Source of the DNA: Candidatus Nanosyncoccus sp.
GTDB lineage: Bacteria; Patescibacteriota; Saccharimonadia; Saccharimonadales; Saccharimonadaceae
NCBI GenBank assembly: GCA_045546095.1
Contig: JAZQCE010000010.1
Span: forward strand, 5,712 to 69,711
Direction of reading: 5' to 3'
Length of the DNA: 64,000 nucleotides
Shown here piece after piece: positions 1-11,526 of the stretch (positions are counted from its first letter, which is position 1; each line of letters begins with the position of its first letter). A program made the translations under genes and the position numbers. The notes beneath the pieces are model-generated. The model worked only from the letters and a program-made list of their open reading frames with translations. It was not told the origin of the DNA and did no database searches.

Positions 1-1044
1 AATACTTTTTTTGTCGTCATTCAGGACAGCGTTCTCAAAAGACAAGTTATCTCCATATCTCAAATAACGAACCCATCCAGCCTGCGGCGTGTGGTCCAGG
101 GGCCCAGCTAGCGCCTGATAAAGTGAAGGCATAACATAGGTTTCACTAGTAGTAGTATCGCTAGTTGTCTGTCCTTGTGCTCTAAAAAATTCTCCATACA
201 TATGCGAAGGCATCAAATTCGTCTCCACGATAGGCAAAATATCAGAAACATGGTTGTTAGCAAAAAAGACTGTATGCAAGTTTTTCAAATTCGCCAAAGG
301 CTCCAAATCAGACACTTCGTTATCATCAATCAAAAGACCAAACAGATTAGCCATGCCGGACAGCGGGCTGAGATCGGTTATCTGATTGTTACTTAGTAAA
401 AGATTCTCCATCTTGGTAGCATTAGCTAGCGGGCTAAGGTCAGTTATCTTATGCCCTTGCAAGTACAACTCCGTGAGCTCTGTCATATTTGCAAGTGGCG
501 AAATGTCCGATATTTGCCCATTTACAGAGGACGAATATCTCGGCGACAATTCTAGATGATACAGCTTTATCAAACCACTCAGTGGCGTAAGATCAGAAAC
601 TTGATGTTCGGATACAGCGAGATAGGTGAGATTAGTCATATTCTGTAACGGAGTAAAATCAGTCACGGCTCCCTTCGTGGCAAAAAATTCGAGATTGGTA
701 AAATTCTCTATACCAGTTAAATCTGTTATTACGCCATCCGTATTACTAAGTCGAACAACGCTAGGTATTTCTGAAACATTCATCGTGGCATAATATGGCA
801 CACTAGAGCAATTATAAGGAGCATAAGATAACCCCTGATTACGGAGCTGGTTATATACTACTTCGCATAGCCTCTTATCATTGAATTCTATTGTTTTTGT
901 GTCCTCAGCAAAGGCCACCGGAGTGAATACTCCACAACTCAGAGCAACAGCAACTGTCGCTACCCCCATCCCAATTATTAATTTTTTTCTAGTTTTTGTC
1001 AGATAACAAAAAACACTACTGCGTGTTTTCATCTTGTTTTCCAT
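1..1044 (-). CDS. Internalin-like leucine-rich-repeat secreted/surface protein, 3' end runs off the window
   Basis: Read manually on the minus strand from ATG at 1044 with no stop to base 1: N-terminal hydrophobic signal (LIIGMGVATVAVALSCG) then 22-aa LRRs such as ISDISPLANMTELTELYLQGHK, ITDLSPLANATKMENLLLSNNQ, ITDLSPLSGMANLFGLLIDDNE. Absent from the ORF track because it is truncated. Confidence 0.9.
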   Translation of the reverse strand, partial: MENKMKTRSSVFCYLTKTRKKLIIGMGVATVAVALSCGVFTPVAFAEDTKTIEFNDKRLCEVVYNQLRNQGLSYAPYNCSSVPYYATMNVSEIPSVVRLSNTDGVITDLTGIENFTNLEFFATKGAVTDFTPLQNMTNLTYLAVSEHQVSDLTPLSGLIKLYHLELSPRYSSSVNGQISDISPLANMTELTELYLQGHKITDLSPLANATKMENLLLSNNQITDLSPLSGMANLFGLLIDDNEVSDLEPLANLKNLHTVFFANNHVSDILPIVETNLMPSHMYGEFFRAQGQTTSDTTTSETYVMPSLYQALAGPLDHTPQAGWVRYLRYGDNLSFENAVLNDDKKSI

Positions 1045-3646: not shown

Positions 3647-3713
3647 ATATGACGGGTGGTTGCATGTGTTTTTATGCTGTCAGAAAAACACATGCAACCA
3701 GGACCCGTCATAT
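3647..3713. repeat. Long hairpin / inverted repeat
   Basis: Perfect 16-bp stem GGTTGCATGTGTTTTT (3657-3672) / AAAAACACATGCAACC (3684-3699) plus outer ATATGACGGG/CCCGTCATAT that overlaps the HNH gene stop. Confidence 0.85.
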
Positions 3714-4451
3714 CCCTATAACTCGTTCATTAGGACAATTGGAAAGAATCTGACTGATGGCATCTTTCTCTGCCTCTGTCACCCATAGCGAATATTTGTA
3801 TTTTACCGACACCTGCCTCGCCACATACTGACACCGAAACTTCTTATTCGCCGGCAACCACGTCGCCGCATCACCATCCGATTTTTTCTTGTTTGCCGCC
3901 GCATCCACTGCCAATAAATTCAGCGGGTCCGTAGCTAGTTCATAGCGTTTCTCTGCCGCAAGGTTCTGCGCTCCCTTTTGCCACGCATCAGACAGCGCCA
4001 CCACATGGTCTATCTGTATGCCATTAGAAATCTGCTCTCGCTCTGTATATTTCATATGCTCCCCAGTATACGGCTCGTCATATTCCCCAGCCAGCACATT
4101 GCATCCATCCAGTACCGCCGTCTCACCAAACTCCCGCTTGATGATTTTTTGTCGCAAATTACATCCCTCCACAGTCGGCCACCCATTATAAAATTCTTCA
4201 CGCGAATACCCAGTCTTTGGTGCCCGCCCCTTTACTTCAAGTTTCTCCAAAATCTCTATAGCTAGCGGCTGAGACTCGTCTGCAGGAGCACCACTCGCCT
4301 CGGCCTCCCAATTCTCCGTATCGTATTCCGCCCCCGCGTTTTCCGTAGGTGTAAAAACCGCCTCGTAGCTTTCGGGGTTCACCACCAGCCAAATCAAAGC
4401 CAGAATCAGAGCCGCCCCCACTACCGACAACCTCCGAGCTTTTAGTTTCAT
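3708..4451 (-). CDS. Secreted HNH endonuclease family protein (DUF1524/GmrSD C-terminal-like)
   Basis: N-terminal TM; IQIDHVVALSDAWQKGA, LNLLAVDAAANKKKSD, WLP..CQYVARQ motifs. Confidence 0.85.
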   Translation of the reverse strand: MKLKARRLSVVGAALILALIWLVVNPESYEAVFTPTENAGAEYDTENWEAEASGAPADESQPLAIEILEKLEVKGRAPKTGYSREEFYNGWPTVEGCNLRQKIIKREFGETAVLDGCNVLAGEYDEPYTGEHMKYTEREQISNGIQIDHVVALSDAWQKGAQNLAAEKRYELATDPLNLLAVDAAANKKKSDGDAATWLPANKKFRCQYVARQVSVKYKYSLWVTEAEKDAISQILSNCPNERVIGI

Positions 4452-4469
4452 ACCCTCATTATATCAAAG

Positions 4470-5252
4470 CTAATCTTCTTTTCGCAAAATCTCTGGATTT
4501 AGATGCTCGGTATTAGCTAAATCCTCGCCATCCCCCCGATGCTCCGCCAAAGCTTCCTCATCGGTTGCAGTTTCCGCTACATCATCCTGCACTTTTTCCC
4601 TCTGTGCGGCTAATACCTGAAACAGTTCCGTCAACCCTCGCACACCATATCCGCTCACCGCATATTCAAAATACCCTTTACCGGCCGCCTTCGCGCCCGC
4701 ACGGAGCTCCTCGTATCGCGGGTCAGCCCCCTCTACCTCAGCAATCAATTCTTTCATATCATCGAGAGCCTTAAACGCCCCCTCTACCGACTTTTGCCCA
4801 GACGGCCTATTCACACCTTCACGAAACTCAGCCTCGCTAGCCGCAGCCGCCCCAGCTTCATCCCGCACTTCCCTATATCCTTCTGGCGTATCCACACCCA
4901 AATACTTAAACAAATCTCCAATCGGATCAGCCCTACCACTAGCATCAAACCCTTTTATTTTTTGCACAACAGTCTCCACCCCCATTTCTCGCGCCGCCGC
5001 ATTCAATCCATAATTAATCAATGCTGCCGCGTCAGCAATTCCAGCATTATATTCCGCCCCGGTTTCCTCAGCTCCACCATCTTTTGCCTCTCCATAATAC
5101 TCATTATCCGGATTCGCCACCCCGAGTTTATCACCAGCAAACTCCGGGACACCAGCCTCCATCACTTTCTCAAAATCTTGTTCCGGCGGCACTACTCGCT
5201 CTCTTTCTACTTGTTTGCCAGGGGCTACTTCAAAACTATTATCGTCGTACAT
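4470..5252 (-). CDS. Acidic hypothetical protein
   Basis: 260-aa ORF in operon-like spacing with its neighbours; no recognised motif. Confidence 0.75.
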   Translation of the reverse strand: MYDDNSFEVAPGKQVERERVVPPEQDFEKVMEAGVPEFAGDKLGVANPDNEYYGEAKDGGAEETGAEYNAGIADAAALINYGLNAAAREMGVETVVQKIKGFDASGRADPIGDLFKYLGVDTPEGYREVRDEAGAAAASEAEFREGVNRPSGQKSVEGAFKALDDMKELIAEVEGADPRYEELRAGAKAAGKGYFEYAVSGYGVRGLTELFQVLAAQREKVQDDVAETATDEEALAEHRGDGEDLANTEHLNPEILRKED

Positions 5253-5260
5253 TTTCCTCC

Positions 5261-6241
5261 TTATTCTATGTTTTCTGGTTTTATATTTGAATTAATTAAC
5301 GTATTCAAATGCTCGCTATGCAACACATCTGCATTATAAATCTCCACTTTTGCGTTATATGTTTCAATTAATCCATTTATTTCATTATACAAAGCCTCTA
5401 AAGATTCTTGCCTAGCCACCAGTTCAGCCCTCTGTCCATTAAAATCTTCCTCTGTCTGGAAGCATCCTGCCACATCCGCGCAACTATTAAAACTCACAAT
5501 ATCAGCATTCAGCTGCCCCGCGAGCAGCTCATACTGAGACGTTTTTTGCTCCACCTCATTGCTAATGCTTTCAAGCTCTAGCGCCAAGGCATCCAGCTCA
5601 GCCTGCAACCGATTAAATACTCCAATATATTTATCGTAATAAGCCACCACTTTATCCTGCTCTCTAAAAATCTCCGCATAGTGTCGCTCCAAGGCCTCAG
5701 GCAAATCAGCTATTTCTGTACCCGCCCGCACGTACAACTCTTCCTTTTTCTCATTATCGTCATAAATATCCAACTCTTCACCCAACGCCGTCTGATGTTC
5801 CACCAATACCTCATTTAAAGCCGTCTCCAGCACCTGTCGCGCACCATCATCCATCCGCGCCCACGCTACATGCAACAGCTCATGCGCAGTAGTCAGCTCT
5901 CGTATCCCATCCAGCTCCTCTGAATCTATATTATACACATAGATGCTCTCCCCATCATAGCACCCCAGCACCGCAGTCTCGGTCACACCATCTCTACAAT
6001 TAGCATTAAACTCCTCCCTCTCGCTGAGTACCGGCTGCGATGCGTTAAACAAAAACACACCCTTATCCGTCAAGTTTAGTTCGCCCCTTATCCTCTCCAT
6101 CTCCGCCGACGGCTGATAGGTCACCCCCCGATAATAATCATAAATCCAATCCCTGTTCGCCGCCACCACGGCTCCACCCACAACCAGTACCGCAATTACT
6201 ACCCACCAAATCCATTTTTTACTCGATCTCCTTCTTTCCAT
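5261..6241 (-). CDS. Membrane-anchored protein with HELLH zincin-like motif and C-terminal coiled coil
   Basis: N-terminal TM, AHELLH motif, heptad-rich C-terminus; TATAAT 6 nt before ATG. Confidence 0.75.
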   Translation of the reverse strand: MERRRSSKKWIWWVVIAVLVVGGAVVAANRDWIYDYYRGVTYQPSAEMERIRGELNLTDKGVFLFNASQPVLSEREEFNANCRDGVTETAVLGCYDGESIYVYNIDSEELDGIRELTTAHELLHVAWARMDDGARQVLETALNEVLVEHQTALGEELDIYDDNEKKEELYVRAGTEIADLPEALERHYAEIFREQDKVVAYYDKYIGVFNRLQAELDALALELESISNEVEQKTSQYELLAGQLNADIVSFNSCADVAGCFQTEEDFNGQRAELVARQESLEALYNEINGLIETYNAKVEIYNADVLHSEHLNTLINSNIKPENIE

Positions 6242-6269
6242 ACCTCCATTATACCAAACTCCCCCATCA

Positions 6270-6320
6270 ATTCTAATTATCCAAATAGTTAAAAAGGCAT
6301 TTCATGAATTATATGAGTAA
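6270..6320 (+). pseudogene. Very short C-terminal remnant of a second PemK-like toxin
   Basis: QIVKKAFHELYE* (6282-6320) parallels YKEIRDAYLKLI* at 1294 and is followed by the same convergent RNA/promoter unit. Confidence 0.4.
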
Positions 6321-6373
6321 AAATGTACCCCCGACTTTTCAGAAGGGGGGATTGCGAGTAACCTCGAATATAT
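6316..6373 (-). ncRNA. Putative two-hairpin small RNA (copy 2)
   Basis: Follows a perfect TTGACA-N17-TATAAT; hairpins CGAG/CTCG (6355-6366) and CCCCC/GGGGG (6328-6350); compensatory change relative to copy 1. Confidence 0.55.
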
Positions 6374-6378
6374 TTCAT

Positions 6379-6407
6379 ATTATATCAAGTAGCAAGCATT
6401 TTGTCAA
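6379..6407 (-). promoter_or_regulatory. Consensus sigma70 promoter TTGACA-N17-TATAAT
   Basis: -35 at 6407-6402, -10 at 6384-6379. Confidence 0.8.
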
Positions 6408-6417
6408 TAGAAAGGAT

Positions 6418-6526
6418 AGGTTGGTTATGAATTTAAAGATAAGAATCTTGAATTTCTAAACCAACCTGTTTCCTTAATCCCGTTCACTATTAAAATCTAT
6501 CTCCCGGAACCAAAATAGAAAACATA
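6418..6526 (+). repeat. Cassette boundary repeat R1 (ychF 5' end copy plus element end; palindromic att-like site)
   Basis: AGGTTGGTTATGAATTTAAAGATaaGAATC matches the ychF start (10402-10431); the whole ~110 bp aligns with 8092-8200; inverted arms AGGTTGGTT / AACCAACCT at 6418-6467. Confidence 0.85.
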
Positions 6527-6566
6527 ACGATTTTTATTGCCAAAACAAATGATTTATAATGGTTTC

Positions 6567-6956
6567 ATGTCAAAACCAAGTTATTCAGTTATAGTCCCAA
6601 AAGAGCTTTACCCAAAACCATCAAATCGAGAAATGACTGCTGCCTATATTTTGATTGATTTCTTTAATTCCGATATAAAATTCGTAATCAGAAGCGATAA
6701 TAAAACGCCAGATTTTTTAATTGATAATAAATACTGGGAATTAAAATCTCCTACGGGTAATGGTAAATATAATTTACAGCATGCACTCAGAAATGCTGCT
6801 AAGCAATCAGAAAACGTTATTATTGATGCTAGATTTTCAAAAATTCATATCAATAAAATAAAAAATGAGCTGAATTACCAATTCAAGCACTCTAAAAATA
6901 TAAAGCATCTGCTTTTAATTGATAAGCAGAAAAATGTAGTTGAAATTTCTAGATGA
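6567..6956 (+). CDS. Small PD-(D/E)XK nuclease resembling the tRNA nuclease CdiA C-terminal domain; candidate toxin
   Basis: KTPDFLIDNKYWELKSPTG...LRNAAKQSENVIIDARF motif; ATG 6567 is 6 nt after TATAAT. Family assignment is from recall and needs an HMM check. Confidence 0.75.
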   Translation: MSKPSYSVIVPKELYPKPSNREMTAAYILIDFFNSDIKFVIRSDNKTPDFLIDNKYWELKSPTGNGKYNLQHALRNAAKQSENVIIDARFSKIHINKIKNELNYQFKHSKNIKHLLLIDKQKNVVEISR

Positions 6957-6968
6957 GTACGATATAAT
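6940..6968 (+). promoter_or_regulatory. sigma70 promoter TTGAAA-N17-TATAAT overlapping the nuclease stop codon
   Basis: -35 at 6940-6945 inside the last codons, -10 at 6963-6968. Confidence 0.75.
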
Positions 6969-6974
6969 AAAGAT

Positions 6975-7029
6975 ATCGAAAGTCCGTCAGGCAACGCTGG
7001 ATTGCGTAGGTTCGGGGCTTTCTTTTTTG
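6975..7029 (+). ncRNA. Putative small hairpin RNA (candidate antitoxin)
   Basis: Stem GAAAGTCCG (6978-6986) / CGGGGCTTTC (7013-7022), inner GCAA/TTGC stem, T-run terminator 7023-7028, own promoter. Confidence 0.55.
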
Positions 7030-7044
7030 TGCTATAATGCAACT

Positions 7045-8061
7045 ATGAAGCAGGCTGAAACCACCGATTATTTCAAAATTTTAAGTCCAGATTCTCCAGA
7101 TTGGCTCAAAGATTATATTAATACTAAAGAACTCCAAACCCAAAAATATATCAGTACTACCTGTGGCACACTTTATACCGATTTATTTAGTAGCGATACC
7201 TTTTATTCCAGCTTGGACCACTCCATTGCGGTTGCACTAATTGTCTGGCATTTTACTCACAATAAAAAACAAACTCTTGCTGGGTTGTTTCATGACATTT
7301 CAACTCCTGCCTTCAAACACTGCGTAGATTTTATGAACGGAGATTATCTAAAACAGGAATCTACAGAAGACTTAACTACCGATTTTATTAAAAAATCTCA
7401 GGATGTAATGGATTTACTTAGAGAAGATGATATCAAAATTGCAGAAATCGACAATTATCATATCTATCCAATCGCCGACAACGACACACCAAAATTATCG
7501 GCAGATAGGCTAGAGTATTCATTATCCAATGCGTTATTCACCTATAAAATGTTAGATTTAGAAGAAATTAGAGAGATATACAACGATATAGAAATCGAGC
7601 GAAACGAATCAGGAGAGTCAGAGCTAGGATTCAAAACTAAATCCATCGCTAGAAAGTTTGTCCAAGTTACTAGCAAAATGTCAGTTATCTACCGCGATGA
7701 TAGAACTAGATTCTCCATGCAATTTATTGCAGATATATTAAAAGGGCTAAAAGAAGGCGGTGAAATAACAATAGAAGAATTATACGATAAAAAAGAATCC
7801 GATGTTATTGAGATAATTGAAAAATCAAAATACAAAGATGCCTGGAACATCTGGAAAAAAGCTAAGAAAATCAATATTTCAAAAACTAAACCCGAGGATG
7901 CTTACTATATTCATCAAAAATCCAAAGTACGATATATCGACCCACTTTGTAACGGTGAACGTATGTCTAAAATTTGCAAAATAGCCAAAAATGCCATAGA
8001 CAAAAACCTTTCCTACGATATGAGTAACTATGTCTATCTAGATTTTAAACTCGAAAAATGA
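7045..8061 (+). CDS. HD-domain phosphohydrolase
   Basis: SSLDHSIAVAL...LAGLFHDISTPAFKHCVD...LSADRLEY motifs; start moved to ATG 7045 after TGCTATAAT. Confidence 0.9.
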   Translation: MKQAETTDYFKILSPDSPDWLKDYINTKELQTQKYISTTCGTLYTDLFSSDTFYSSLDHSIAVALIVWHFTHNKKQTLAGLFHDISTPAFKHCVDFMNGDYLKQESTEDLTTDFIKKSQDVMDLLREDDIKIAEIDNYHIYPIADNDTPKLSADRLEYSLSNALFTYKMLDLEEIREIYNDIEIERNESGESELGFKTKSIARKFVQVTSKMSVIYRDDRTRFSMQFIADILKGLKEGGEITIEELYDKKESDVIEIIEKSKYKDAWNIWKKAKKINISKTKPEDAYYIHQKSKVRYIDPLCNGERMSKICKIAKNAIDKNLSYDMSNYVYLDFKLEK

Positions 8062-8076
8062 TATAATCATATCTAT

Positions 8077-8200
8077 AATAACAGATATCACAGGTTGGTT
8101 ATGAATTTAAAGATCGGAATCTTGAATTTTTAAACCAACCCATTTCTTTTATCCCGTTTTCCACAAAAATCCGCCTGCCAAAGCCAAATTGGAAAAACAT
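8077..8200 (+). repeat. Cassette boundary repeat R2
   Basis: 8077-8121 nearly identical to 10388-10431 (1-nt indel); 8092-8200 aligns with R1; palindrome GGTTGGTT...AACCAACC at 8093-8140. Confidence 0.9.
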
Positions 8201-8211
8201 CCATATTAGAA

Positions 8212-8257
8212 CAAAAAGATAGGACTCACCTATTCCGAGGCAAGTCCTATCTTAATA
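8212..8257 (-). ncRNA. Putative small hairpin RNA downstream of the deleted nuclease
   Basis: Perfect 11-bp stem AAGATAGGACT (8216-8226) / AGTCCTATCTT (8243-8253), T-run on the minus strand, own promoter. Confidence 0.55.
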
Positions 8258-8262
8258 ATCTA

Positions 8263-8291
8263 ATTATACCAAAACTACTTCTTAAAATCAA
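8263..8291 (-). promoter_or_regulatory. sigma70 promoter TTGATT-N17-TATAAT overlapping the stop of the deleted nuclease
   Basis: -35 at 8291-8286, -10 at 8268-8263; same register relative to the stop codon as 6940-6968. Confidence 0.7.
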
Positions 8292-8403
8292 CTATTTTCT
8301 TAGTTTTTGTCACAATCTTTAACCTTTCGGTAAATAACAGAATCGTCTTATATTCGTGTTTCTCTAAAATAACACCATTTGGGATAATTTTACCTTTTTT
8401 CAT
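8275..8403 (-). pseudogene. Internally deleted paralog of the CdiA_C-like nuclease (42 aa)
   Basis: MKKGKIIPNGVILEKHEYKTILLFTE|RLKIVTKTKKIVDFKK*: the N- and C-terminal parts align by eye with the two ends of the 6567-6956 protein; the catalytic PD..ELK core is absent. Confidence 0.6.
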
Positions 8404-8590
8404 GCGAGGCATTATAACTAATCCACTCTACTTTTTCAACCCCCCTACCCACAATATGATCTAATGCAAACATCGAAACTTTTGCGGGACACAGTATGTA
8501 GCGAGCGCGAGGACCGAATATTTACATTTTTATTTTTTAATGTATAATAAGTATGAAAAGTATAACCAGTTATACTTTAAGGAAGCGTGC

Positions 8591-8791
8591 ATGAAAAATA
8601 AATTTGTAGGTATAGCCAAAGTTGGTGAAAAAGGACAAATTGTTATTCCAAAAGAAGCAAGAGAAATGTTTGATATTAAATCTGGTGATTCTATCATCGT
8701 TCTTTGTGATAAACAAAAAGGAATTGCTTTATTGAAAGCAGATGCAATTGAAGATTTATCGGATAAAGTATTTCCTAAGGAAGAAAGATAA
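8591..8791 (+). CDS. AbrB/MazE/SpoVT-family DNA-binding protein
   Basis: AKVGEKGQIVIPKEAREMFDIKSGD signature; start moved to ATG 8591. Confidence 0.9.
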   Translation: MKNKFVGIAKVGEKGQIVIPKEAREMFDIKSGDSIIVLCDKQKGIALLKADAIEDLSDKVFPKEER

Positions 8792-9513
8792 TGATAGCAA
8801 TAGAAACAAAAAATTTAACCAAAAAGTTTAAAGACAAAACAGCAGTAAATGGGGTCGATTTGAGCATCAAACAAGGAGAGCTATTTGCACTATTAGGAAC
8901 AAATGGCGCCGGTAAAACTACAATAATAAAAATTTTATCAGGATTGATATTACCAACATCTGGGAATATTAAAATTGAAAACATGGATATGAAAAAAGAT
9001 GTATTTAAGATAAAAGAAATCTTAAATGTATCACCACAAGAAACTGCTATTGCACCAAATTTAACAGTAAAAGAAAATTTAGAATTTATGGCAGGAGTTT
9101 ATCAAATAAAAGATAAAGAAAGAAAGATTAATGAACTTGTTAAGGAGTTTAAGCTTGATGAAGTTTTAAATAAAAGAGCTAAAACTTTGTCAGGCGGATG
9201 GCAAAGAAAAGTATCAATAGCAATTAGTTTAATAAATGATCCTAAAATACTATTTTTAGATGAACCAACATTAGGATTAGATGTTATTGCTAGAAAAAGG
9301 TTATGGAAAGTGATTGAAGGATTAAAAGGTAAAATTACTATTATTTTAACTACTCATTACATGGAAGAAGCAGAAAGCTTATCTGATAGAATTGGTATCA
9401 TGGCAAAGGGCAACATCGTTGAAGTTGGAACCGCTAAAGAATTAATTAAGAAGACTAAAGCAAAAAACTTTGAAGATGCATTTGTAGCAATCGCAACTGA
9501 AGGTGAGCTATAG
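8791..9513 (+). CDS. ABC transporter ATP-binding protein (ABC-2 type)
   Basis: Walker A GTNGAGKTT, LSGG signature, Walker B ILFLDEPT, TTHYMEE. Confidence 0.95.
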   Translation: MIAIETKNLTKKFKDKTAVNGVDLSIKQGELFALLGTNGAGKTTIIKILSGLILPTSGNIKIENMDMKKDVFKIKEILNVSPQETAIAPNLTVKENLEFMAGVYQIKDKERKINELVKEFKLDEVLNKRAKTLSGGWQRKVSIAISLINDPKILFLDEPTLGLDVIARKRLWKVIEGLKGKITIILTTHYMEEAESLSDRIGIMAKGNIVEVGTAKELIKKTKAKNFEDAFVAIATEGEL

Positions 9514-10244
9514 TGAGAATGTTAAATTTCGCCAAGAGAAACTTTAAAGAATTAATAAGAGATCCTTTAAGTTTAATATTTGAAATCGCTTTGCCATTAT
9601 TTTTATTATTTATATTTCAACAATTTGATATACCAGCAGAAAACTACAAATTAGAAAATTTTACTCCAGGAATTATAGTATTTGGTTTTTCATTTATAAC
9701 TTTATTTACTGCTACTTTAATTGCAAAAGACAGAACATCATCATTTTTAATTAGATTAGGTACATCGCCAATGAAGTCGAGCGATTATATTTTAGGATAC
9801 ATAATATCACTAATTCCAATCATAATAATCCAAAATGTATTATTCTTTTCACTAGCAGTTATTTTGGGACTAAACTTTACTATAAACATATTTTTTACAA
9901 TTATCGTATCTATAATAGTTTCAATATTATTTATTTCATTAGGTATATTAATTGGAAGTTTAGTCAGTGAAAAAGGAACTGGTGGGTTAGGAAGTGTAAT
10001 AGTTCAATTAGTATGTTTTACAAGCGGTATGTATTTTCCAAATGATAAAATTGGAGATGTATTTGGTTTTATATGCAGAATCTTACCATTTGAAAGTTGT
10101 TTAAATATAATAAAAAGTGTATTAAACAATAATCTAAATGCAATATCACTGGAAAATATAATAGTATTTTTAATATATACGATTGGAATTTTGATTTTAT
10201 CAATTATTGTATTCAAAAAGAGAATGATAAGTGACAATAAGTGA
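9513..10244 (+). CDS. ABC-2 type transporter permease
   Basis: Six hydrophobic segments, FTSGMYFP motif, translationally coupled to the ATPase. Confidence 0.9.
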   Translation: MRMLNFAKRNFKELIRDPLSLIFEIALPLFLLFIFQQFDIPAENYKLENFTPGIIVFGFSFITLFTATLIAKDRTSSFLIRLGTSPMKSSDYILGYIISLIPIIIIQNVLFFSLAVILGLNFTINIFFTIIVSIIVSILFISLGILIGSLVSEKGTGGLGSVIVQLVCFTSGMYFPNDKIGDVFGFICRILPFESCLNIIKSVLNNNLNAISLENIIVFLIYTIGILILSIIVFKKRMISDNK

Positions 10245-10387
10245 TTGGAAAGTTTTTCAAAGTATTCTCGAATAATCAAACCAACTCCATCATAACAAAC
10301 TGAACAAATACCCCACCCGCAGTTTGCCTTGCACAAACTTTATCATATCTAATGTTATACACCAAAATATGCTATAATTATACCAGC

Positions 10388-10431
10388 AATAACAGATATA
10401 CAGGTTGGTTATGAATTTAAAGATCGGAATC
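10388..10431 (+). repeat. Cassette boundary repeat R3 (the functional ychF start)
   Basis: AATAACAGATATACAGGTTGGTTATGAATTTAAAGATCGGAATC; diverges from R1/R2 right after GAATC. Confidence 0.9.
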
Positions 10432-11526
10432 GTTGGGTTGCCCAATGTCGGCAAATCCACATTGTTTAATGCTCTCACAAACGCTGGCGCCCTCGCTGCC
10501 AACTATCCTTTTGCTACCATCGAGCCAAACGTCGGCATTGTCCCGGTACCAGATGAGCGGCTAGACATCCTCGCCAAAATGTACGAGACCGACAAAATCG
10601 TCCCAGCTACTGTCGAGTTCGTCGACATTGCTGGCCTCGTCGCAGGCGCCTCAAAAGGCGAGGGGCTCGGCAATAAATTCCTTGCCCACATCCGTGAATG
10701 CCAAGCTATCTGCCATGTGGTCCGCGCCTTCAAAAACGACGACATCCTCCGTGCCGACCAAAAACTCGTCGATGATATTGTAGCGCAAGCCAAGGACGAC
10801 ATAGACATCATTAACTTAGAGCTACAGCTCGCCGACGAAGAAACCAAAGCCAAAATCGCCGCCAAACGCAAAAAAGACCCTGGGGACGAATTCATCCCCT
10901 ACCTCACCGACAAGCCCGTCATCTATATGTTCAATGTAGACGAAAAAGGCCTCACCGACAATGACCTACAACAAAAACTAACAGAAGTCGCAAGAAATGC
11001 GCAGTCGAGGGACATAAAGGCAATACTTGCCGAAGGCAATTTTGCCGCCGAAGGGGCGAAGCGAGGTGATAAAATTTCTAATTTATCACCTCGCGAAGCT
11101 CCCGAGACGTGCATTTCTTGCGACTCAAACTGTATTTTTGTTGATGCCAAACTCGAAGAGGAGATGTCCGGCATGGACCGCAATGAGCGCAAAGAGTTCT
11201 TGGAGAGTTACGGGGTAAAAGAAGATGCACTCGGCGAATTAATCAAGGCCGCCTATGACGTCCTCGGTCTCCAATCCTTCCTCACCGCCGGCAAGAAAGA
11301 ATGCCGCGCCTGGACCATCAAAAAAGGCTCTACAGCACCCCAAGCCGCCGGTACTATCCATACCGATTTTGAACGCGGTTTCATCGCTGCAAATGTCTGT
11401 AAATACGCCGACTTAGCAAGACTCGGCTCCGAGAAAGCCGTCCGCGAGGCCGGCCTCCTCCGCACCGAGGGCAAGACTTACGTCATGCAAGACGGCGACG
11501 TTGTCGAATTCCGTTTCAACGTATAA
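10411..11526 (+). CDS. ychF: Redox-regulated ATPase YchF (with in-frame hairpin insertion)
   Basis: GIVGLPNVGKST, NYPFATIEPN, FVDIAGLV, TGS domain IHTDFERGFI, YVMQDGD. Confidence 0.97.
   Translation: MNLKIGIVGLPNVGKSTLFNALTNAGALAANYPFATIEPNVGIVPVPDERLDILAKMYETDKIVPATVEFVDIAGLVAGASKGEGLGNKFLAHIRECQAICHVVRAFKNDDILRADQKLVDDIVAQAKDDIDIINLELQLADEETKAKIAAKRKKDPGDEFIPYLTDKPVIYMFNVDEKGLTDNDLQQKLTEVARNAQSRDIKAILAEGNFAAEGAKRGDKISNLSPREAPETCISCDSNCIFVDAKLEEEMSGMDRNERKEFLESYGVKEDALGELIKAAYDVLGLQSFLTAGKKECRAWTIKKGSTAPQAAGTIHTDFERGFIAANVCKYADLARLGSEKAVREAGLLRTEGKTYVMQDGDVVEFRFNV
10986..11125. repeat. Hairpin element family C, copy in ychF
   Basis: Arms AGTCGCAAGAAATGC / GCATTTCTTGCGACT; core TCGAGGGACATAAAGGCAA...GCCGAAGGGGCGAAGC shared with 36082 and 40266. 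Confidence 0.85.

Follow-up and report, generated by a model that had tools for sequence, protein, structure and literature searches.

A free-standing CdiA_C-fold nuclease gene linked to a small hairpin RNA gene in Saccharibacteria: a candidate type III-like toxin-antitoxin module

A stretch of 64,000 nucleotides (nt) from a contig of Candidatus Nanosyncoccus sp. (JAZQCE010000010.1 of assembly GCA_045546095.1, positions 5,712 to 69,711 of the forward strand; called the window here and numbered from its first letter) possesses a gene for a small basic nuclease with a CdiA_C domain, followed directly by the gene of a predicted small hairpin RNA. The promoter of the RNA gene lies in the last codons of the nuclease gene. 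Comparison of homologous loci makes it highly probable that the small RNA gene is real and that it is coupled to the nuclease gene. On balance, the favoured reading of the pair is a type III-like toxin-antitoxin module in which the toxin has a new fold and the antitoxin is one hairpin without repeats. A previous reading of the same letters, made without database searches and called here the sequence-only reading, had already pointed out the sequence elements of this module, and all of them were found where it had placed them. Its proposal of an RNA-antitoxin module stood in the genetic part, namely the linkage, the embedded promoter and the covarying hairpin, while in the functional part, to which abortive infection and stabilisation of the cassette belong, it stays a proposal.

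The nuclease gene and the hairpin RNA gene behind it

The nuclease gene, a presumed toxin gene, occupies positions 6567 to 6956 of the plus strand, with its ATG at 6567 and its TGA at 6954-6956. It codes for a stand-alone, basic PD-ExK protein of 129 amino acids (aa). A profile search, recommended by the sequence-only reading for confirming the domain, matched the protein to the Pfam family CdiA_C (PF18451) with E 2.9e-18 and 66.2 bits against a cut-off of 26.6, and the match spans the whole model (positions 1-81 of 81). The same domain is carried by 115 of 115 homologues. Residue conservation analysis in an alignment of 33 homologues showed that E22, D49, E58, K60, Q80, S81, D87, R89 and K92 are invariant; in this alignment P-D49...E58-L-K60 represents the PD...ExK nuclease signature. 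The AlphaFold2 model of the protein has a pLDDT (predicted local distance difference test) of 88.9, and its sole significant fold match in the PDB by Foldseek was 4g6v_A (E 1.5e-6, TM 0.70), the next match being at E 0.1. Searching the PDB with the single nuclease sequence gave no relative; 4G6V came only from the profile and fold searches, the family profile reaching it by sequence with E 0.02 and with the acidic and lysine motif positions aligned. The assignment to a PD-(D/E)XK-type protein with the CdiA_C fold, proposed from the sequence, is therefore borne out by PF18451, the invariant residues and the 4g6v_A match. Chain A of 4G6V is the CdiA-CT toxin of Burkholderia pseudomallei 1026b, a PD-(D/E)XK tRNase which binds tRNA 1:1, cleaves tRNA-Ala in the acceptor stem and is inhibited by a CdiI protein that touches its active site (PMC9086364). 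The isoelectric point (pI) of the nuclease is 9.7 and the family median is 10.1. CdiA_C is the only domain of this free-standing protein of 129 aa, which has a promoter 6 nt before its ATG, and the absence of a secretion domain seen by the sequence-only reading was likewise upheld.

This promoter has its -10 box TATAAT at 6555-6560 on the plus strand, and a TATAAT-like box is situated ~5-9 nt before the start codon in most of the homologous loci. As the box ends 6 nt before the ATG, the nuclease mRNA is probably leaderless or nearly so, with its start inferred from the box. Many genes, both in the window (6555-6567, 7030-7047 and 8403-8416) and in homologous loci, have a -10 box ending 5-9 nt before the start and no Shine-Dalgarno sequence, which suggests that leaderless mRNAs are widespread in this lineage.

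The promoter of the small RNA is composed of a -35 box TTGAAA (6940-6945, plus strand) within the nuclease codons for V-E-I, a 17-nt spacer which holds the TGA stop, and a -10 box TATAAT (6963-6968, plus strand), and this site scores 11/12. The whole arrangement over 6940-6968 is as the sequence-only reading had described it. In the window alone neither the promoter nor the hairpin rises above chance. The AT-rich island in which they lie contains 26 promoter-like sites against 22.5 +/- 4.3 in shuffles, and the folding energy of the hairpin, -18.7 kcal/mol (z -1.83), was equalled by 11 of 200 shuffled sequences. The significance of both is therefore due entirely to the comparative data. These come from 80 homologous loci, found by a scan of species-representative genomes and mostly belonging to metagenome-assembled genomes, whose nucleases range from 95% down to ~40% identity.

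A TTGnnn-16..18-TAnnnT pattern was present at a fixed place in 65 of the 80 loci, its -35 box preceding the end of the stop codon by 14-23 nt; the sequence-only reading had staked its proposal on such retention. The distance from the end of the -10 box to the first position of the RNA model is exactly 7 nt in 37 of 41 loci, and the likely transcription start then falls ~2 nt before the stem. Between the end of the reading frame and the RNA, the only conserved positions are the TTG, the TG of the extended -10 and TA...T, and both the spacer and the discriminator vary. One locus (L009) has lost the TTG inside the open reading frame (ORF) and possesses a complete TTGTCA-17-TACAAT after the stop instead. 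Five loci (L050, L068, L069, L074 and L061) and genome G076 have an inverted RNA gene, which lies on the other strand and converges with the nuclease gene, and each of these inverted copies has its own TTGACA-17-TATAAT-like promoter at the same distance. The gene following the RNA in the window also starts with a -10 of its own, as had been noticed from the sequence: TGcTATAAT at 7030-7038 before the ATG at 7045.

The predicted small RNA is ~52-54 nt long and occupies 6975-7028 on the plus strand, both ends being predicted. A stem-loop with a T-run after TATAAT had been seen there by the sequence-only reading, and this corresponds to the hairpin at 6976-7028 with T6 at 7023-7028. The outer stem pairs G6978-C6985 with G7015-C7022 and the inner stem pairs 6994-6997 with 7004-7007. 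Between them is a conserved internal loop (GUCAGGCA / AGGUUCG), the apical loop is UGGAUU, and a U-run (7023-7028) closes the RNA. A covariance model, R1, was constructed from a hand-checked alignment of 28 distinct sequences. It matches 6976-7026 with 76.3 bits and E 7e-20; the model was quickly calibrated and its E-values are rough. With R1 the RNA was found ~20-50 nt after the nuclease stop in ~70 of the 80 loci. A search of Rfam 15 with both strands of 6200-10600 gave no match at E <= 1.

Covariation strongly marks this hairpin as a conserved RNA structure. In the seed alignment of 28 sequences, 96.4% of the cells of 12 pairs in two helices are paired and 41 cells are compensatory. None of 500 shuffles reached the seed covariation score, and sliding the partner by 1-3 columns left 21-54% of the cells paired. 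Among 53 distinct R1 matches, compensatory changes were found in 11 of the 12 pairs, in an alignment which was fitted to the model and so favours pairing; compensatory cells number 41 to 95 across both alignments. The unpaired bases of the internal loop (...CAGGCA / AGGUUC...) are also conserved, and the apical loop is variable in both sequence and length. Conservation of the RNA exceeds that of the protein, with 98% RNA identity at 63-67% protein identity and 80-88% at 55-60%. Seven loci (L049, L055, L065, L067, L057, L060 and L062) show the conserved hairpin without a U-run and, behind it, a separate canonical terminator. Where RNA and nuclease gene run in the same direction, as is common, the nuclease mRNA probably ends at this hairpin too. 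Another locus, L091 (G269:C3), has the RNA twice, ~20-125 nt after the nuclease stop, in identical tandem copies that both have a U-run. These tandem copies recall the repeat arrays of type III antitoxins.

No protein partner of the nuclease emerged from the neighbouring genes. ORFs up to 4 kb on each side of the nuclease gene were clustered for 81 loci, and no conserved protein neighbour was found in them: the largest neighbour family within 4 kb occurs at 14 loci and the commonest immediate neighbour at 8. The latter is a Replic_Relax gene, situated directly upstream in 8 of the 81 loci. In general the neighbours differ in both identity and orientation. The HD-like gene which follows the RNA in the window recurs at only 3 of the 81 loci, and its Pfam HD match (E 0.03) is below threshold. 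As its adjacency is not conserved, the HD protein was rejected as the partner of the nuclease. ORFs of at least 20 aa in 6440-7060 gave no credible partner, and no conserved small ORF was found within the module, in agreement with the sequence-only reading, which had seen no small immunity ORF here. A 55-aa antisense ORF over the RNA (6875-7042) was also discarded: the related GAAGG-type RNAs have a TAA that closes it, and evolution of the region proceeds through compensatory changes of base pairs. PADLOC and NCBIfam scans of the nuclease and the HD protein gave nothing useful and no match to the nuclease.

A disarmed second module, broken nucleases and the spread of the family

A second module with the same architecture as the first is present in the window on the minus strand (8439-8213). 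Its promoter TTGAAA-17-TATAAT (8411-8439, minus strand) scores 11/12 and precedes a 42-aa remnant ORF of a paralogous nuclease (8275-8403, minus strand), which consists of the N-terminal 29 aa followed in frame by the ~13-16 aa of the C-terminus. The whole catalytic core has been deleted in frame and both promoters and the RNA are intact. The embedded RNA promoter (8263-8291, minus strand) is composed of TTGATT at 8291-8286 in the last codons, a 17-nt spacer with the TAG stop, and TGgTATAAT with its -10 box at 8268-8263. The second small RNA (8213-8256, minus strand) is a variant hairpin with an 11-bp outer stem (8253-8243/8226-8216), the interior UGCCUCGGAAUAGGUG and a U-run; it coincides with the terminator-like match at 8253-8216 and is also the inverted repeat I5.

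A BLAST search for the second RNA against 121 genomes of the same family gave no relatives. An exact-pattern scan of metagenome contigs with the interior of the hairpin found four loci (L109-L112), in which the embedded-promoter arrangement is present too. Three of the four (L110, L111 and L112) contain intact nucleases of 129-134 aa which match the family profile with E ~1e-29. These proteins begin with ...MKKGKIIPNGVILEKHEYKTILLFTE and end with ...LKIVTKTKKIVEFKK, and the 42-aa ORF of the window represents both of these ends fused in frame; its C-terminus also shows a weak match to the family profile. In L110 the same RNA interior stands after an intact nuclease gene, with an outer stem that differs by compensated changes.

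Loss of the nuclease beside a retained RNA was also observed in other loci. The nuclease is clearly broken by stops, frameshifts or a large 5' deletion in 6 of the 80 loci and is without ~14 N-terminal residues in 2 more, and beside all eight the RNA is well-scoring or still recognisable. Extra RNA copies were found beside heavily decayed nuclease remnants in L003 and L015, and beside a 52-codon remnant in genome G120. In all, ~10 loci show a broken nuclease beside an intact RNA. No clean case of an intact nuclease without the RNA was found. L037 had been a candidate for such a case and was set aside: an insertion sequence (IS) with helix-turn-helix and rve-type transposase ORFs lies at the junction of ORF and RNA (4360-6100). 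This insertion replaced the C-terminus of the nuclease, and no RNA is detectable in the locus.

The nuclease has more than 100 close relatives, and those with a name belong to Candidatus Saccharibacteria. The nuclease profile collected 556 clusters (50% identity) at E <= 1e-10, nearly all of 120-140 aa, as were nearly all of the best 150 cluster representatives. Distribution within the order is patchy, the nuclease being present in 25 of 301 genomes and the R1-type RNA in 14, and wherever the assembly permits a check the RNA stands beside the nuclease or its remnant. Distant nucleases beyond the reach of R1 show the same layout, with the -35 box in the last codons, then the -10 box, ~10 nt and a hairpin. 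The hairpins of these distant subfamilies also have an outer stem, an internal loop, a short inner stem and a U-run, and their sequences differ from the R1 type. The 832-kb genome studied here itself contains three additional, more distant paralogues (C22:43177-43542, C24:15905-16201 and C15:25977-26327), and those on C22 and C24 have the embedded promoter and variant hairpins of their own.

Hairpins of another subtype, with the interior ...AAGAUACUGAAUUGAAUCAAG..., were noticed directly behind the cognate RNA in L028, L030 and L031, and ~200-320 nt downstream on the opposite strand in L029. In other loci the AAGAUACUGAAUUGAAUCAAG-type hairpin accompanies distant nuclease subfamilies. Over the 330 nt covered behind the first nuclease gene in these four loci no nuclease of that subtype was found, and their AAGAUACUGAAUUGAAUCAAG-type hairpins may be orphan RNAs.

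The pairing of nuclease and RNA is not described in Rfam, PADLOC, NCBIfam or the literature searched; the literature searches revealed no described CdiA_C/RNA pair and no RNA antitoxin of Saccharibacteria. A much wider proposal, to which slightly less than an even chance is given, is that a large undescribed superfamily of toxin/RNA-antitoxin modules exists in Saccharibacteria and other Patescibacteria. Each module would combine a free-standing nuclease of the CdiA-CT fold with a single unprocessed pseudo-substrate hairpin expressed from a promoter inside the toxin gene. Hundreds of subfamilies would have cognate hairpins, with several orthogonal pairs in a 0.8-Mb genome, and copies of the RNA alone would possibly give immunity against incoming modules.

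Possible function of the RNA

In the favoured reading, the module would act as a compact, self-contained unit of two genes and ~0.5 kb. The promoter 6 nt before the ATG would drive the nuclease mRNA, and the near-consensus second promoter would start an irregular hairpin RNA of ~50 nt ending in a U-run. The -35 box of this second promoter is inside the last codons of the nuclease gene; the RNA would be made in excess from this promoter and would, in addition, be carried as a copy on the 3' end of the nuclease mRNA. It would bind the nuclease directly and hold it inactive, as a pseudo-substrate or as a blocker of the active site. When RNA synthesis stops, through loss of the module or shut-off by a phage, the freed nuclease would cut tRNA or another structured RNA. 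That the RNA is transcribed, that the nuclease is toxic, that the RNA binds and inhibits it directly and that the pair serves addiction or defence is all inferred. Since no antisense complementarity links the RNA to the nuclease mRNA, action of the RNA on the protein is the simplest assumption. The patchy distribution and the mobile contexts of the module (integrase-less cassettes, Replic_Relax genes and IS elements) are commonly seen with toxin-antitoxin modules. A protective RNA would be expected to outlast its nuclease, and nucleases were indeed found broken more often than RNAs, which is only suggestive.

Several points weigh against a toxin-antitoxin module. The excess of broken nucleases is not significant by itself, because the ORF is a 4- to 8-fold larger mutational target; by our own estimate the P of the asymmetry is about 0.1-0.35. 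Co-divergence of RNA and nuclease would follow from tight linkage alone. The C15 paralogue has no clear RNA, and a strong promoter and another small ORF follow it. No established type III system has the toxin fold or the gene order of this module, and none lacks RNA repeats as it does. Finally, instead of blocking the nuclease, the RNA could be required by it.

This last point leads to the main rival, in which the RNA is a cofactor or a substrate, or is itself the functional product, either in an active ribonucleoprotein or as an RNA that the nuclease matures or turns over. It would then not inhibit the nuclease, and the pair would not have to be a toxin-antitoxin module. The strict linkage, the co-diversification and the basic protein of RNA-binding type would fit an active complex equally well, and the solved relative binds a structured RNA 1:1 (PMC9086364). 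Against it, the RNA has fixed ends and no variable segment that would serve a guide role, the closest relative is a lethal toxin, and the patchy, mobile distribution resembles that of selfish or defence modules. RNA genes and promoters which persist beside dead or core-deleted nucleases are also harder to explain in this way. Taken together, a cofactor, substrate or product role is considered unlikely, even as the strongest of the rivals. A guide RNA as in OMEGA/TnpB was rejected as a separate candidate, because the ends are fixed and there is no variable stretch. Mimicry of a tRNA acceptor/T-arm minihelix, considered on geometry only, was not supported, since 5-7 unpaired nt stand on the 3' side between the stems.

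Regulation by base pairing is a distinctly less probable explanation. Here the RNA would control either the nuclease mRNA, as a type I-like antitoxin, or other targets in trans, as a small RNA (sRNA) of the type derived from 3' untranslated regions (3'-UTRs). The 3'-UTR-derived sRNAs DapZ and MicL of enterobacteria have their promoter in an upstream coding region and pair with other mRNAs in an Hfq-dependent manner. The architecture observed here is like theirs, with a promoter in the last part of an ORF and a terminator common with the mRNA, and in the few convergent loci the RNA would be antisense to read-through transcripts of the nuclease gene. In most loci, however, the RNA is sense to the nuclease transcript. 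Unlike DapZ and MicL, it is a closed hairpin which travels with one nuclease gene and has no antisense match. Paired with the first 90 nt of the nuclease mRNA region, the RNA gives the same duplex energies as shuffled RNAs and no excess complementarity (mean z -0.19, 44 loci), and the antisense or type I mechanism was rejected on this basis. Moreover, the RNA is almost wholly paired internally, and its conserved bases are in the internal loop while the apical loop is variable.

Still more improbable is neutralisation of the nuclease by a protein, be it the HD protein or an unlinked immunity protein, with the hairpin having no part in immunity. CdiA-CT toxins are normally blocked by CdiI proteins (PMC9086364), and an HD-like gene with a match below threshold does follow the RNA in the window. 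The rarity of this family, found at only 3 of 81 loci, speaks against such a role, as do the unrelated identity and either orientation of the other neighbours and the lack of a conserved small ORF in the module.

A last possibility is that the hairpin serves the nuclease gene as an intrinsic terminator and nothing more, which the sequence-only reading had itself named as fatal to its proposal, and that AT-rich DNA produced the promoter match by chance. It agrees with the promoter count, the fold z of -1.83 and the U-run after the stem in the window, but is hardly credible and is excluded as a general explanation by the promoters of the RNA at a fixed 7-nt spacing, the inverted copies with promoters of their own, the separate terminators behind copies without a U-run and the tandem duplicate of L091, together with the covariation, the conserved internal loop and the conservation of the RNA above that of the protein.

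The favoured toxin-antitoxin reading can be placed between several known systems. With the Bp1026b CdiA-CT(II)/CdiI pair the nuclease shares the PD-(D/E)XK-type fold, and 4G6V is its only solved relative. Unlike CdiA, it is free-standing and cytoplasmic, with 129 aa and with no CdiA filament, entry domain or secretion partner, and a small RNA gene stands where a CdiI-like immunity gene would stand. Polymorphic toxins carry the toxin domain at the C-terminus of a large secreted or delivered protein, whereas here the domain makes up an ORF of 129 aa.

The type III toxins ToxN, CptN and TenpN are homologous endoRNases, and their antitoxins are tandem repeats which lie upstream of the toxin gene, with a terminator between, and are cut into units by the toxin (PMC12283969, PMC8860590). 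As in ToxIN, CptIN and TenpIN, the nuclease gene is tightly linked to the gene of a small structured non-coding RNA, with an expression logic that favours an excess of RNA. Cognate RNA variants for each toxin subfamily, a mobile and patchy distribution and disarmed toxins which keep their RNA are further common features. The differences are that the nuclease has an unrelated PD-ExK fold, not that of ToxN, CptN or TenpN, and that a single hairpin, situated downstream or on the other strand, has a promoter and a terminator to itself and does not evidently require processing. Tandem repeats were found only in L091, with two copies. Because fold, repeats and gene order do not agree, the module is filed as one working like type III and not as a member of a known family.

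To our knowledge, directly RNA-neutralised toxins comprise only the three homologous families ToxN, CptN and TenpN plus the recent AbiF. In Clostridioides difficile, AbiF(Cd), a non-ToxN toxin of the Abi_2/AbiD/F type, is bound and neutralised in cis and in trans by the structured, non-repeat RNA RCd22, according to a preprint (bioRxiv 10.1101/2025.04.15.648962). AbiF/RCd22 is a precedent for a toxic protein other than ToxN with a non-repeat RNA antitoxin. It differs from the module of the window in its RNA, which has abiF motifs, and in the position of that RNA, and the nuclease described here has no PADLOC match.

If the favoured reading is true, a nuclease fold of polymorphic toxins which is normally blocked by a protein would have been domesticated with an RNA antidote, in a minimal single-hairpin architecture of ~0.5 kb. 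Confirmation of both the antidote and this architecture would therefore widen the range of type III toxin folds and RNA designs. It would also give a first handle on the toxin-antitoxin or defence biology of the ultra-small, episymbiotic Saccharibacteria, in which an RNA of 50 nt would be a cheaper antidote than a protein. The hairpin would add to the known RNA families one that covaries clearly and has a testable protein partner, and orthogonal pairs of nuclease and RNA inhibitor would be usable as tools.

Cassette context and neighbouring features

The module lies within an AT-rich island (~30% GC against ~49%) which is made up of two integrase-less cassettes stacked at the start of ychF (window 6406-10431). 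In cassette 1 the nuclease-RNA module is accompanied by the HD-like gene, and in cassette 2 the disarmed module is accompanied by an AbrB/MazE-like gene (8540-8791) and an ABC transporter (8791-10244). Each cassette starts with a copy of the first 7 ychF codons, placed inside an imperfect palindrome of ~50 bp with 23-nt arms, which itself is within a 117-nt repeat. The left boundary repeat of cassette 1 is at 6406-6522 on the plus strand (repeats D1, D2 and I6), and the left arm of its palindrome copies the 5' end of ychF. The second copy of the 117-nt repeat, at 8080-8196 on the plus strand, forms the boundary between cassettes 1 and 2. The third copy of the core (10400-10431, plus strand) is the true 5' end of ychF, whose ORF extends over 10405-11526. 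The core 23-mer was found 3 times against 0 expected. Each cassette also supplies a replacement promoter for ychF, and 8035-8088 resembles 10346-10399.

The same core flanks the module or the cassettes in 11 related loci. Elsewhere the module is found after a Replic_Relax gene or near IS elements. The genome has three tyrosine recombinase genes, none of them on this contig. A role of the module in stabilising such mobile elements, or in defence, is plausible.

Two further features were observed beside the island. A perfect minus-strand promoter TTGACA-17-TGnTATAAT (6407-6379) is followed by a small hairpin with a T-run (6345-6328), and this promoter/hairpin region (6270-6407) is convergent with the end of a short plus-strand reading frame. 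Just upstream of the island, the minus-strand gene at 3708-4451 codes for a secreted or membrane-anchored protein with an HNH nuclease domain of the GmrSD_C/DUF1524 type (E 5e-18).

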